From positions 1 through 31,401 of the forward strand of contig JBDRNT010000071.1 of assembly GCA_043810925.1 (NCBI GenBank): a stretch of 31,401 nt of DNA, read 5' to 3'. Positions 9,271-15,061 of the stretch are shown here, piece by piece. How positions within the stretch are numbered: the stretch's first letter is position 1; every line of letters starts with the position of its first letter. The position numbers and the translations under genes were made by a program. Under the pieces are notes generated by a model. The model ran no database searches and was not told the DNA's origin. It was given only the letters and a program-made list of their open reading frames with translations. This DNA is from Candidatus Eiseniibacteriota bacterium. Lineage in GTDB: Bacteria; Arandabacterota; Arandabacteria; Arandabacterales; Arandabacteraceae.

Positions 9271-10050
9271 TTACCTGTAAAGAGCCTTGATACCACCCCA
9301 GCTCGATGCCGCGGTCGCGGTGAACTCTCCGCTCGTCGCACTGACGCTGTTCGGTGCAAAACCCGCAACGGGCATCGGACCCGGTACATGCGGGAAGAAG
9401 AACGGATACGCCCACATGAATGTCGGAAGCACACCGATGGGATTCTGAATCGGCCATGAGGCCAGAACGCCGGGGTCGGTGCCGAATGTGACGTCATCGG
9501 TTATCCACGCCATCACGGCTACACCCTGCGGCAATCCGAGGTCCGACCAGAGGACACCAAACTCATCATCCCACACGTCTCCGCCAGGCCAGGCATAGTA
9601 GGTGTTATCATTTCTCCAGCCGCGCCAATCCCACTCGGTACCGGTCCAGTAGCCCCACTCATACCAGCCACCACCACCGGCGAAGTAGAAGATGTACTCG
9701 GGCATGTAGCAGCCGTAGAAATTAACGTTGCCGTAGCCGTCCGCAGGTGCGCCCGAACCGAAGGTCTGATCCACGTCAATGGCCACAAAGAAACTCAGGT
9801 CCGCGGGAGGCCCCGCACCGTCACCAAGGAAACGCCTGCACGTATCCGAGTCCACCGAGAGCCACAGGAAGTCGGCATCCCATGTGATCGCCAACCCGTA
9901 GGGACAGCCGTCTATGAATACAACATCAAAGAACGACTCGGCGGGAAAGTCATTATAGCCGTCGAGCGTCGGGGTATAGAACGTCGTACCCAGAGCAGCT
10001 CCCGACCAAAGCAGAAACAGAGCAACCAGTCCTGCTGTAACCAACTTCAT
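9271..10050 (-). CDS. Secreted hypothetical protein (DOMON-like domain) with C-terminal SWGGIKALYR tail
   Basis: Signal peptide MKLVTAGLVALFLLWSGAALG after SD GAGGATGAGGAG. Homologous to the N-terminal domain of 6894..9176 (FVAIDVDQTFGSGA..DGY..V.F.G...PEYIFYFAGGGGW). Confidence 0.85.
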   Translation of the reverse strand: MKLVTAGLVALFLLWSGAALGTTFYTPTLDGYNDFPAESFFDVVFIDGCPYGLAITWDADFLWLSVDSDTCRRFLGDGAGPPADLSFFVAIDVDQTFGSGAPADGYGNVNFYGCYMPEYIFYFAGGGGWYEWGYWTGTEWDWRGWRNDNTYYAWPGGDVWDDEFGVLWSDLGLPQGVAVMAWITDDVTFGTDPGVLASWPIQNPIGVLPTFMWAYPFFFPHVPGPMPVAGFAPNSVSATSGEFTATAASSWGGIKALYR

Positions 10051-10179
10051 CTCCTCATCCTCCTCTCGCTCAACAGAGCGATCAACGTTTACGGTGATCC
10101 CGGGGCTGGCCGGCATCACCCCCTCTTCTTGAGATACCTCTAGTGTTCAAGAAGTCGCTGATTTCTCACACCTGGTTCT

Positions 10180-10208
10180 ATTATATAACAGAAAACAAGC
10201 AATGTCAA
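10180..10208 (-). promoter_or_regulatory. Consensus sigma-70 promoter
   Basis: TTGACA (10208-10203), 17-nt spacer, TATAAT (10185-10180): a perfect consensus. Confidence 0.85.
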
Positions 10209-10264
10209 TCAAGATCGTCCAGACCCGAACTCGCCCTTTCCCGCCGGTGGTAAGCCTCTCCCGG

Positions 10265-11236
10265 TCAGTCCCCGCGGGCCAGATCTGTCCTCAGAGCAAA
10301 TCTGTGGATGTTATCGAGAGGACTTGCATCCTCGAAGGTGTAATCGATCCAGAATCTTCCGAAGCCTATCCCGAACCCGGCCATGATACCGCGTTCCCAT
10401 GGCAAGCCGTTTGCCGAGTCGGAGAACTTGCCGACCCTTCTCCGGTAACCCAGTCTCACCTCAAACTCACTTGAGGGTCTGGCAGCGAGCCCGAACCGTA
10501 TCTCGCGTCTGCCACTGTCGCCCATGTAGACCGAGGTGCCCGCGGACAGGTCATTGCCCGGAAGTCTGAGCGCCAGACCCGCCTCGCAGTTGCTGGGAAT
10601 CTCGCCATCTTCATTCTGCCACCGGACGAGCACGAGGTTTCGTGTGACGAGGGACGCATAGACGGCAGGCCGCCGCTCTTTTGTGCCATCCAGGGGATAG
10701 ATCCTCACTGTGCTGCTCAGATCCGCAGCCACGCCTGAACCCGTGACATCGTCAAGTTCGTACCTGGCGAGCTTCAGCCCCGTTCCAACCGAGAGATAGG
10801 GAAGGAGCCTCACTCCACCCGATACGCCCAACACGAGGTCCCCGTACTTAAACGTGTCACCGCTTTGCCCAACCTGGTCATCCAGCCCGGTCTTAGCATA
10901 GGTGTCGCTTGAAAGATAAGAGCCCTGGATGCCATAACCAAACCTCTCCCCCACGCCCATGTAGGCTGCCGTTCCGCCACCAAGACTGACCAGGTAGTCC
11001 ATGTAGCCGGCCGCAAAGGCAGGGGAACCTGCAAATCCGAGGCCCGAGGAGTTCCATAGGATGTTGTCGATCTCACCCGCAGCGGCAACAAGACCGTGTG
11101 TCCCGCCACCGCGACCGAGAAGATCGATATTGAGCGTTGAAAACGGTGAGGCGGAAACGTGTGAAGAAACGCAAAGAGTGGCAAGGCAGAGAGTGATGAT
11201 CAAAAGGAGAACCTGTTTTGACGTGATGACGGCCAT
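10265..11236 (-). CDS. PorV/PorQ-family (UPF0164-like) outer-membrane beta-barrel protein
   Basis: Signal peptide, then an N-terminal plug-like segment (TLNIDLLGRGGG..GLVAAAGEIDNILWNSSGLG) resembling the 'L.I..GAR..AMG.A..A...D....WNPAGL' motif. Alternating amphipathic strands; C-terminal IDYTFEDASPLDNIHRFAL. Confidence 0.75.
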   Translation of the reverse strand: MAVITSKQVLLLIITLCLATLCVSSHVSASPFSTLNIDLLGRGGGTHGLVAAAGEIDNILWNSSGLGFAGSPAFAAGYMDYLVSLGGGTAAYMGVGERFGYGIQGSYLSSDTYAKTGLDDQVGQSGDTFKYGDLVLGVSGGVRLLPYLSVGTGLKLARYELDDVTGSGVAADLSSTVRIYPLDGTKERRPAVYASLVTRNLVLVRWQNEDGEIPSNCEAGLALRLPGNDLSAGTSVYMGDSGRREIRFGLAARPSSEFEVRLGYRRRVGKFSDSANGLPWERGIMAGFGIGFGRFWIDYTFEDASPLDNIHRFALRTDLARGD

Positions 11237-11283
11237 AATCACTCCCACCCAAATCGCCTACGCTACATATGCAATCCAACCTT

Positions 11284-11312
11284 ACTTTACTATGATGTCG
11301 CCCCCGCGTCAA
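11284..11312 (-). promoter_or_regulatory. Putative sigma-70 promoter of the PorV-like gene
   Basis: TTGACG (11312-11307), 17-nt spacer, TAAAGT (11289-11284). Confidence 0.6.
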
Positions 11313-13289: not shown

Positions 13290-13510
13290 GACTTAGCACC
13301 GACTGACAGATGGAGCTGCGATAACGGTAGTGCGTACTTTGCCGTACCGGTGATGGTGTATATCTCACGGAGCGTGCTGTCGACATACGTATGACCGGCC
13401 TGACCGTCGGGTACCGACATATATCGGCACCACCTTTGTATCCGGCGGTCTCAGACGAGTGCCGGAAGAATACACATCTGCCCACAGTTCCATAGACAAT
13501 GCGAATTCAA

Positions 13511-13539
13511 TTGACATAACGTACGAGTTATGCTAAAAT
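13511..13539 (+). promoter_or_regulatory. Sigma-70 promoter with extended -10 (cassette 2)
   Basis: TTGACA (13511-13516), 17-nt spacer, TGc-TAAAAT (13534-13539). Shares TTATGCTAnAAT with the cassette 1 promoter. Confidence 0.8.
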
Positions 13540-13654
13540 TGGCTTGGTTTGGTTGGAAGATTGGGAAGGTGGTGATGTACACAAAAGGTTGATTGCTACA
13601 GGAACACGGGCGCGAGACCAAATTCCAATTTGAGGGAGACAAAGGAGAAGGTTT

Positions 13655-14323
13655 ATGACCAAAGGATATTATACCCTGATAGTCTCTGGAGTGATTTTGC
13701 TGCTCATGCCCACAGTCCTTCTGGGATGGAACTTCGACTACATGCTTTTCAGTCAGCCGGGCGGGATCGTAAACAGCGCTGCCGTCTACGAAGGGACCAT
13801 CACAAGCGGCGGTGTGGGTACGTTTCGCATTACCCTGAATGACACCGGTTGGCCGGTAGATCCCGTACTGAGGTTCAATCATATTTGGACGACCTATTTC
13901 GCAGCCAACTGGGACAGTGCAGGCGGGCAGGCCAAGTGGGTCGGTCAGATTCCCGGTAGGTTCTATATCAACGCAACGTCAGCTCCCATTGGATACAACG
14001 GATGGTGTGAGGGAAGCATAAACGCCAAGATCACGGTGAGAGATCTCAACAAGAACCAGATTCTCGACGCCGCGGAGCTGGCCAAGCAGCACCTCTTCGA
14101 CGGCCGCCTCTCGAAGCTATGTGACTACCCCGACGGCGATCCGGCCGGCGGTGAGATGGCAGACAAGTGGGGTTGGGGAGCGGTTGCGAGCAACTACTTC
14201 TCTTTTGAGGCGACGCCGGTAGATACGATCTACAATGGCACCAACTTGACCCTTACGACAATGGGATGCGTGTCGGACGTCGAGCCTACAACCTGGGGTT
14301 CTGTGAAATCGCTTTATAGATAA
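13655..14323 (+). CDS. Secreted hypothetical protein A2 with C-terminal TWGSVKSLYR tail
   Basis: SD AAGGAG; signal peptide; shares KWVGQIPGRFYI, GYNGWCEGSINAKITVRD, HLFDGRLSKLCDYP and DKWGWGAVASNYFSF with A1. Confidence 0.88.
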   Translation: MTKGYYTLIVSGVILLLMPTVLLGWNFDYMLFSQPGGIVNSAAVYEGTITSGGVGTFRITLNDTGWPVDPVLRFNHIWTTYFAANWDSAGGQAKWVGQIPGRFYINATSAPIGYNGWCEGSINAKITVRDLNKNQILDAAELAKQHLFDGRLSKLCDYPDGDPAGGEMADKWGWGAVASNYFSFEATPVDTIYNGTNLTLTTMGCVSDVEPTTWGSVKSLYR

Positions 14324-14431
14324 TGTAGAGACAAAGATTCTTTTGTGGAAGGGGGGATGCGACCAGCAGACAATTGTGCCTGTCATGTTTTAGACCCTGA
14401 ACCATGGAAGCGTTTTAGTGGAGGTAAGAAG

Positions 14432-15061
14432 ATGCGAACAGCGGTTGTGATGATAGCGGCGGTTCTGCTGCTTGCCGGCGCCGCGGCGGCGCAGGTACAC
14501 TATGAGTTCCATTGCGCCGGTACAGGTAATATGGCTGCCGTCAGCCCGCCCGTGTATTCAGGTGGGATTGACGGCGGCGATCTTGCTCCCGGAACCTGGG
14601 AGATGGAAGTGGTGGAAGATGGCTTTTGGCCGGGCGTTGGCGACCCTGTTGCCCGCTGGGCATACATCTGGACGACCTACTATGTGTACGATCCGGGTCC
14701 CCAGATTTGGACAGGTGTTTTCGATTGCGCACTCTTTCTAGAGCGAACCGGCCAGGGTACGATGACCGGTGTCAACGATCTCACCTTTCAGATAATCGAC
14801 ATGGACGGCGACGGTCAGCTGGATCCCGGCGAATGCATGGACGGTATGTCAGGTGCGGTTATCATCATCCATGACGGTACCGGTATCTATGCCCCCTATT
14901 GCGGAGACGGAACTTACGAAGGCTTCTATTTCCGTGACTGCAGTGAGGGCCCGACCTACATGCTCGACCAGGTCGATTTTAACATGCAGCTTGATCTTGA
15001 GGATTGCGCTATGGCCAATGAGGCTTCGACGTGGGGAGCGGTCAAAGCCTTATTTGAGTAA
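14432..15061 (+). CDS. Secreted hypothetical protein B2 with C-terminal TWGAVKALFE tail
   Basis: SD GGAGGT before the ATG at 14432; signal peptide MRTAVVMIAAVLLLAGAAAA; shares IDGGDLAPGTW, QIIDMDGDG, CGDGTYEGFYFRDC and DQVDFNMQLDLEDCA with B1. Confidence 0.88.
   Translation: MRTAVVMIAAVLLLAGAAAAQVHYEFHCAGTGNMAAVSPPVYSGGIDGGDLAPGTWEMEVVEDGFWPGVGDPVARWAYIWTTYYVYDPGPQIWTGVFDCALFLERTGQGTMTGVNDLTFQIIDMDGDGQLDPGECMDGMSGAVIIIHDGTGIYAPYCGDGTYEGFYFRDCSEGPTYMLDQVDFNMQLDLEDCAMANEASTWGAVKALFE

Follow-up and report, generated by a model that had tools for sequence, protein, structure and literature searches.

We analysed a 31,401-nucleotide stretch of DNA from Candidatus Eiseniibacteriota bacterium (the window; contig JBDRNT010000071.1 of assembly GCA_043810925.1, here contig C71 of a source genome of 3.85 Mb that is 92% complete), in which five genes for exported proteins end in the same short C-terminal peptide, hereafter the tail. 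The five genes and their tails are as follows.

9271..10050, (-) strand: exported protein of 259 aa, tail-bearing, C-terminal sequence TAASSWGGIKALYR (read at the DNA level too)
9271..9318, (-) strand: tail of the 259-aa protein, last 15 residues plus stop, profile score 42.6 bits
11860..12528, (+) strand: A1, exported, 222 aa, tail-bearing (tail 12481-12528), C-terminal sequence NYPASWSAVKALYK
12645..13289, (+) strand: B1, exported, 214 aa, tail-bearing (tail 13242-13289), C-terminal sequence NEPSTWGAVKALFE
13655..14323, (+) strand: A2, exported, 222 aa, tail-bearing (tail 14276-14323), C-terminal sequence VEPTTWGSVKSLYR
14432..15061, (+) strand: B2, exported, 209 aa, tail-bearing (tail 15014-15061), C-terminal sequence NEASTWGAVKALFE

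All five ends read as quoted in the initial annotation, and a signal-peptide-like start was detected on 5/5 of the proteins, in agreement with the Sec signal peptides it had assigned (signal peptides and lipoboxes were called throughout by our own heuristics, without SignalP). Its claim of two passenger families in the window also stood: the A and B proteins are distant paralogues (28% identity over 233 columns, E 2e-14), and the 259-aa protein is unrelated to them. A degenerate DNA pattern of the tail matched the window twice, compared to 0.00 matches in 100 shuffles. No NCBIfam family was found at E 0.1 for any of the five proteins; A1 was without an NCBIfam or Pfam family, and Pfam gave only EF-hand-like matches, all sub-threshold, on B1 and B2. 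A single-sequence structure model of B1 was too low in confidence for use (predicted local distance difference test, pLDDT, 40).

The neighbouring genes include a barrel of the PorV family and two proteins with the type-A C-terminal domain (CTD) that marks type IX secretion system (T9SS) cargo.

10265..11248, (-) strand: PorV/PorQ-family barrel, one of 18 paralogues (NF033709 60.9 bits, below the curated cut-off of 90)
6894..9200, (-) strand: type-A T9SS cargo of 768 aa (TIGR04183 above cut-off)
15098..19525, (+) strand: C25 peptidase of 1475 aa with FG-GAP, beta-helix and type-A CTD (context)

The 259-aa tailed protein is a one-domain relative of the 768-aa CTD protein next to it, its domain being homologous to the N-terminal one of the larger protein (33% over 189 aa, E 6e-24). 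The 1475-aa C25 peptidase is not the PorU of the genome, which is encoded on contig C69. In a genome of the same genus, the orthologue of 9271-10050 was split across two frames with its tail intact (contig C178:2166-2993). The intergenic stretch at 11300-11670 of the window holds short imperfect direct repeats, seen as repeated peptides in spurious open reading frames, which are not present in the shorter spacer of the relatives.

The tail in the source genome and beyond

Across the source genome the tail follows the consensus A-T-E-P-[ST]-[TS]-W-[GS]-x-[IV]-K-x-[LM]-[YF]-R-stop. When the 73,296 stop-to-stop frames of the genome were scanned with the expression [ST]W[GS].[IVL]K.[LMIR][YF], 49 matches were obtained, of which 48 lay within 2 residues of the stop and one was internal. 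A profile built from these 48 sites detected 61 sites at 10 bits or above, all of them (61/61) within 6 residues of the stop; the recovery of the 48 training sites is circular, but the lack of internal matches is not. Six of the 61 sites fell in frames of less than 100 aa (fragments or chance) and were dropped, and 55 proteins of at least 100 aa were kept. By BLAST these formed 23 passenger clusters, and a signal-peptide-like start was found on 49/55 of them compared to 718/2656 long background frames. Pfam analysis of 32 tailed proteins revealed beta-helix, PD40 propeller, DUF11, lamin-tail (LTD) and rhodanese passengers, with 20 of the 32 lacking any family. Lysine occupies position -5 in 52/55 tails. 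No transmembrane (TM) helix was detected in the tails: none of the 55 exceeded 1.6, the highest 17-residue hydropathy in the last 40 aa being 1.23.

With a median length of 287 aa, tailed proteins are small compared to CTD frames (759 aa), and their genes cluster, with 25/55 at most 1 kb from another tail gene. Convincing lipobox-like starts were found on four of them; a stricter lipobox pattern flagged 0/168 CTD proteins, a contrast that is a lead only as the two patterns differ. A lipoprotein-like family without Pfam match bears the tail, and some of its members carry 2-4 copies in tandem. Several paralogues of tailed proteins had a stop just before the W, a degenerate tail or no tail (C60:16548-17423, C127:5184-5732, C119:22528-23241 and C36:48284-49162), indicating decay or loss of the tail in some of the copies.

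Tail and CTD were compared within the same genome by use of a genome-specific CTD profile. This profile matched 168 proteins, always at the terminus, and none of these was also tailed (compared to 61 tail sites). For 20 tailed proteins the genome also encodes homologues with a CTD. One beta-helix domain occurs with both signals, its end lying either 5 residues ahead of the tail or 21 residues ahead of the start of the CTD profile. Similarly, in 8 of the 10 loci read, a type-A CTD directly follows the fibronectin type III (FnIII) domain of a single-copy tailed family described below, and the closest Atlas structures to which a family was assigned were CTD cargo. The tails did not match TIGR04183 or PF18962 on the five window proteins or on 24 further proteins, nor did they match the genome-specific CTD profile. 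The Ig-like CTD fold (seven strands, about 70-100 aa) was likewise absent, the conserved part of the tail being 15 residues. Tail and CTD both end in hydrophobic-hydrophobic-R/K, and lysine stands at -6 in 116/168 CTDs of the genome, a likeness to the tail lysine that may be convergence. In PMC10994853, the CTD lysine near the end is described as near-invariant and functionally important, with a main role suggested to be other than PorV binding.

In the window's phylum, 15/15 genomes had 22-62 tail-profile matches, and a strict DNA pattern over species genomes located at least 120 loci. Among the matches listed, these came from records named Eisenbacteria, Krumholzibacteriota, Latescibacterota, Zixibacteria, KSB1, Calditrichia, Marinimicrobia, Ignavibacteria, Kapabacteria, Rhodothermia and others. 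Two loci were judged chance matches: L103, a 12-aa frame in a genome without profile match, and L097. The 117 frames derived from the loci represented 48 passenger clusters. In a protein library at 50% identity, 1565 clusters matched the tail profile at E 0.001; among the best 150 of these, the motif W lay within 10 residues of the end in 144 and 2-4 tandem tails were present in 4, and 67/86 full-length matches had a signal-peptide-like start.

Of the 40 genomes behind the pattern loci, 27 had one tailed protein, 2 had two, 1 had none and 10 had 3-46. Many Ignavibacteria, Kapabacteria, Rhodothermia, Calditrichia, KSB1 and Marinimicrobia genomes keep exactly one, an FnIII domain without passenger, a domain that normally stands ahead of a CTD; this pattern is new here. 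The largest cluster (51/117 frames) is a passenger-less protein of about 140 aa that consists of a signal peptide, one FnIII-like sandwich and the tail, ending in S-[GS]-V-[KR]-R-T-W-G-S-I-K-A-M-F-R; its S-[GS]-V resembles the [AS]G[VI] linker found in the CTDs of the source genome. A structure model of this protein had a pLDDT of 91-95 over most of the sandwich and of 46-69, with no secondary structure, over the tail, which thus lies outside the passenger fold. Fold comparison with the PDB matched nothing but generic FnIII/Ig domains, and sequence comparison with the PDB found nothing under E 0.03. A word search for longer homologues of the FnIII domain gave 1 match among 24 candidates and was uninformative. 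Conserved neighbours of the single-copy gene were class-specific housekeeping genes only (Maf, pyrR/pyrB, Fur, MATE, SpoIID). The FnIII-plus-tail protein was not found in the window's own genome. The single-copy tailed protein is present in the cultured genus Roseithermus, and the single tailed protein of Zixibacteria belongs to a family other than FnIII. In Zixibacteria records and one more, a single-copy tailed protein of 140-150 aa, distinct from the FnIII one, was observed between rex and an anti-sigma-factor antagonist cluster.

Taken together, these results bear out in part what had been proposed from the window. The initial annotation had described a portable tag on unrelated exported proteins that lacks a TM helix, and both parts hold for the 55 proteins of the genome. 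The motif is terminal at every profile site and so does not occur as often internally; it extends over 23 clusters in the genome and 1565 in the library, and is therefore not confined to the window paralogues; it is disordered beyond the FnIII sandwich; and it is not an annotated family, no Pfam or NCBIfam model having matched it. None of the observations that the initial annotation had named as refuting its reading was thus made.

T9SS genes and candidate readers of the tail

The source genome encodes SprA, 18 PorV-family genes and a PorU above cut-off, and gave 145 matches to TIGR04183. GldM was not found in this genome (at its 92% completeness) or in 4 other tail-rich genomes, although the same model matched 37 genomes elsewhere. 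GldN was not found in the source genome by a search without positive control; GldK and GldL were not searched. A core operon on contig C69 (82160-98012) reads porU, porV, M6 cargo, two DUF5683 genes, NHL protein, a 1144-aa barrel (weak SprA match) and POTRA/Omp85. Triplets of a large TonB-receptor-like gene, a CTD-like protein and a PorV paralogue were observed on contigs C79, C28, C87 and C148, one of them followed by genes for a GWxTD protein, TolQ/ExbB and TonB. TonB could energise such modules.

The co-occurrence of tail and T9SS genes was examined in a Bacteroidota panel of 151 genomes, each at least 92% complete. SprA was present in 120 of these, GldM above cut-off in 37 and a full-length tailed orthologue in 55. 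The tailed orthologue was found in SprA genomes in all cases (55/55 among the 120), in 0/37 genomes with GldM and in 0/31 genomes without SprA; a tail-only profile revealed nothing real in 80 of the 96 other panel genomes (16 were not searched). SprA was also found in 33/36 further tail-selected genomes of other lineages, including the window's phylum. The tail is thus terminal, portable and export-linked, takes the place of the CTD and, within the Bacteroidota panel, occurs only with SprA. Its link to a T9SS-type machine as a whole is stronger than the initial annotation could know. A T9SS-type machine without the motor is itself widespread, as 83/120 SprA genomes of the panel were without GldM above cut-off.

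The PorV-like barrel of the window, which the initial annotation had named as a possible handler of the tail, was not supported as its dedicated handler. Orthologues were found in 4/5 relatives, and in 3 of these 4 the orthologue of the 768-aa CTD protein follows directly downstream, a tail gene separating the two in the window's genus alone; in 3/4 relatives the barrel gene is flanked by A/B-type tail genes in divergent orientation. The barrel is a long-branch, lineage-specific paralogue among the 18, and the tail spans many phyla. Many other PorV paralogues of the source genome also adjoin a CTD gene. Based on this synteny, the barrel is more likely the cognate shuttle of the 768-aa CTD protein. 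No tail-specific PorV clade was seen when 49 paralogues were placed in a quick tree (23 open branches), which covered the paralogues of two genomes only in part. When the canonical PorV was modelled in complex with the FnIII-plus-tail protein from its own genome, the score was 0.01 compared to a mark of 0.32; controls were not folded, and the result speaks neither for nor against binding.

Other candidate readers were rejected by their distribution. The 1144-aa barrel of the porU operon was present in 72/80 genomes of the Fibrobacteres-Chlorobi-Bacteroidetes (FCB) group, including tail-less ones and GldM-positive ones; Pfam assigned it no family, and none of the 3 SprA-negative genomes tested showed it. 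The second candidate is encoded in the window:

21690-24740, (-) strand: protein of 1016 aa with a peptidase MA domain (HELTH, HExxH motif), a TolB-like propeller and an Omp85 barrel

This protein was detected in 58/58 SprA-positive GldM-negative, 2/12 GldM-positive and 0/10 SprA-negative genomes, which makes it a candidate partner of the motor-less T9SS. It was also present in 27/27 tested genomes of the group without a clear tail and was not retained as reader. Genes for a TamB-like protein (1302 aa) and a three-POTRA Omp85 protein (636 aa) lie directly upstream of it (24673-30509, (-) strand). Comparison of the source genome with a 2.2-Mb tail-bearing genome (about 92% of the latter read) gave 91 common exported proteins by blastp at E 1e-6, a threshold that misses divergent proteins. 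Of these 91, four unannotated ones were profiled (0/5, 0/5, 17/49 and 42/49) and rejected as readers, as none tracks the tail.

Candidate explanations and known systems

That the tail is a sorting or docking tag of some kind is very probable. Our preferred reading, to which we assign a probability of roughly 0.55, is that it is a portable C-terminal address peptide that replaces the type-A CTD in an SprA/PorV/PorU machine without the GldLM/GldKN motor. By this mechanism, the tailed protein would first be exported by Sec, its signal peptide being N-terminal. A protein belonging to the T9SS-type machine would then act as reader, on which the unstructured tail would fold into a short amphipathic element with W, I, L and Y on one face, plus the K and the terminal R. 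Small proteins, together with some lipoproteins, would be routed by this reader to the outer membrane or across it, and cleavage of a sortase type may occur at the small-small-V/T motif that precedes the W. The old tail carrier, a blank cargo or an accessory subunit, would be the single-copy FnIII-plus-tail protein that many FCB lineages keep; the window's lineage and its neighbours would have widened the use of the tail until it served dozens of proteins as a general tag. PMC12618676 describes one translocon that accepts several signals via different shuttles, making a further signal plausible.

Several observations weigh against the address-peptide reading. No PorV clade, operon neighbour or tested shared exported protein tracks the tail, and the single-copy FnIII gene stood beside T9SS genes in 0/16 wide loci. 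Proteins with 2-4 tandem tails suggest that a free C-terminus may not be needed. The A-T-E-P linker of the source genome's tails differs from the [AS]G[VI] of its CTDs; in PMC11969387, PT/GI is the cleavage consensus before the CTD, which the S-[GS]-V of the FnIII family resembles and the A-T-E-P of the genome does not. PorV/SprA bind the folded CTD in a shaped pocket, according to PMC10994853; 15 residues cannot fill such a pocket, and the tail therefore cannot bind alike.

The phylogenetic profile also has its exceptions. A clear tailed orthologue was lacking in 28/83 SprA-positive GldM-negative genomes; when 10 of these were searched at low threshold, 2 were found to hold syntenic orthologues with divergent tails (T-W-E-K-I-K-T-M-F-R and T-W-Q-R-F-A-N-L-F-K), so that 26 still show no tail, and about 22 of the remaining ones, alike in SprA scores, appear to form one clade. 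One SprA genome has lost the tailed gene at its syntenic site between fur and pyrR. Such genomes, which retain SprA, indicate that the machine works without the tail. Furthermore, the profile follows class boundaries and hence reflects few evolutionary events rather than 151 independent ones; many envelope genes would share it, the metallopeptidase-propeller-Omp85 gene among them. Finally, SprA was not found in 3/36 tail-selected genomes, one of which has 22 tails (completeness of these metagenome-assembled genomes was not given).

A variant that we consider tentative, possible yet well short of even odds, makes the FnIII-plus-tail protein an unrecognised component of the machine, a placeholder cargo or release factor whose tail would dock in place of the action of the energy chain; lineages like the window's would have made this docking peptide a general export tag for small proteins and lipoproteins. 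If true, the tail would be the shortest known portable signal for outer-membrane crossing.

A somewhat unlikely alternative is that the tail is a docking peptide with a dockerin-like role for a periplasmic or surface scaffold or carrier, in which case export would be by piggy-back and the T9SS link indirect. The tandem tails on lipoprotein-like proteins, suggestive of a multivalent binding module, the strict W/K conservation on a disordered backbone, and the small size and clustering of the tailed proteins favour such docking. However, no common scaffold was apparent among the 91 shared exported proteins, of which the four tested unannotated members failed to follow the tail in distribution, and the exact positional swap with the CTD and the strict mutual exclusion fit a sorting signal better. 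Direct insertion into the membrane, without a protein reader, in the manner of the C-terminal helix of E. coli PBP5 (an amphipathic membrane anchor) is improbable. The W..[IV]..[LM][YF] spacing, a mean net charge of +2, the T-W-x-x-F-x-x-L-F-K kept by a divergent orthologue without G and K, and the fact that no reader turned up all speak for an anchor; by contrast, only about 9 residues run from the W to the end, the hydrophobic moment at 100 degrees (0.49) does not exceed that at 170 degrees (0.50), W and K are invariant in 92/92 aligned tails (in part imposed by the search pattern), a lipobox-like start is already present on four tailed proteins and the tail is absent from the 31 SprA-negative genomes.

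We consider it more improbable still that the reader belongs to a different outer-membrane machine found alongside the motor-less T9SS, such as the 1016-aa metallopeptidase-propeller-Omp85 protein, the beta-barrel assembly machinery (BAM) or the translocation and assembly module (TAM). The domains and the SprA-positive, GldM-negative distribution of the 1016-aa protein would suit this role, but its presence in all 27 tested genomes without a clear tail indicates that it tracks lineage or machine rather than the tail, and no direct link between the two was found. A periplasmic turnover or quality-control tag for a tail-specific protease is highly improbable: the distance from tail to free C-terminus is fixed and an S41 protease is common to both genomes compared, but S41 proteases are widespread, unlike the tail with its confinement to SprA genomes, and a degron leaves the swap with a secretion signal and the tandem copies unexplained.

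If at least 1565 protein clusters bear an uncatalogued sorting signal, thousands of hypothetical proteins of uncultured FCB phyla would gain an assigned location, and a 15-residue export or display tag would serve protein engineering. As the single-copy tailed protein is present in cultured Roseithermus, signal and motor-less machine are open to experiment. In Flavobacterium the motor is needed for release of cargo from the translocon, as stated in PMC10994853, yet 83/120 SprA genomes are without GldM, which raises the question of the energy source.

Among known systems, the E. coli PBP5/PBP6 anchor is like the tail in that an exported protein ends in a basic amphipathic pattern; the tail is shorter, conserved in sequence and portable across families. 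PEP-CTERM/exosortase, GlyGly-CTERM/rhombosortase, MYXO-CTERM and LPXTG/sortase signals consist of a short C-terminal motif, a TM helix and a basic cluster. They resemble the tail in the short motif after a linker, the many unrelated exported proteins, the basic last residue and the tens of copies per genome, and differ in the TM helix (0/55 tails) and in the processing gene, none linked to the tail having been found. No paper on the tail motif was found in the literature covered, which excluded subscription journals and supplements; the 'STWG' matches examined were unrelated. Type-B CTDs (TIGR04131), with PorP/SprF as shuttles, are 150-235 aa long with a linked shuttle gene, whereas the tail has 15 aa and no linked shuttle gene; TIGR04131 did not match the tailed proteins scanned with NCBIfam. 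Short type-A CTDs of Prevotella intermedia, as described in PMC11969387, retain motifs B, D and E, unlike the tail. The closest likeness is to the type-A CTD (TIGR04183/PF18962; FlgD_ig-like PF13860), which is read by PorV at SprA and cleaved by PorU: both stand at the extreme C-terminus of unrelated Sec-exported passengers and share those passengers, the preceding FnIII domain, a lysine near the end, a hydrophobic-hydrophobic-basic terminus and SprA genomes. By contrast to the CTD, a seven-stranded sandwich of 70-100 residues, the tail has about 15 residues with a W-G-x-I-K core and no profile match, occurs also on lipoprotein-like proteins and in tandem, and was not found together with the GldM motor. 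The tail would work like a T9SS C-terminal signal, yet is neither a type-A or type-B CTD nor a CTERM/LPXTG signal.

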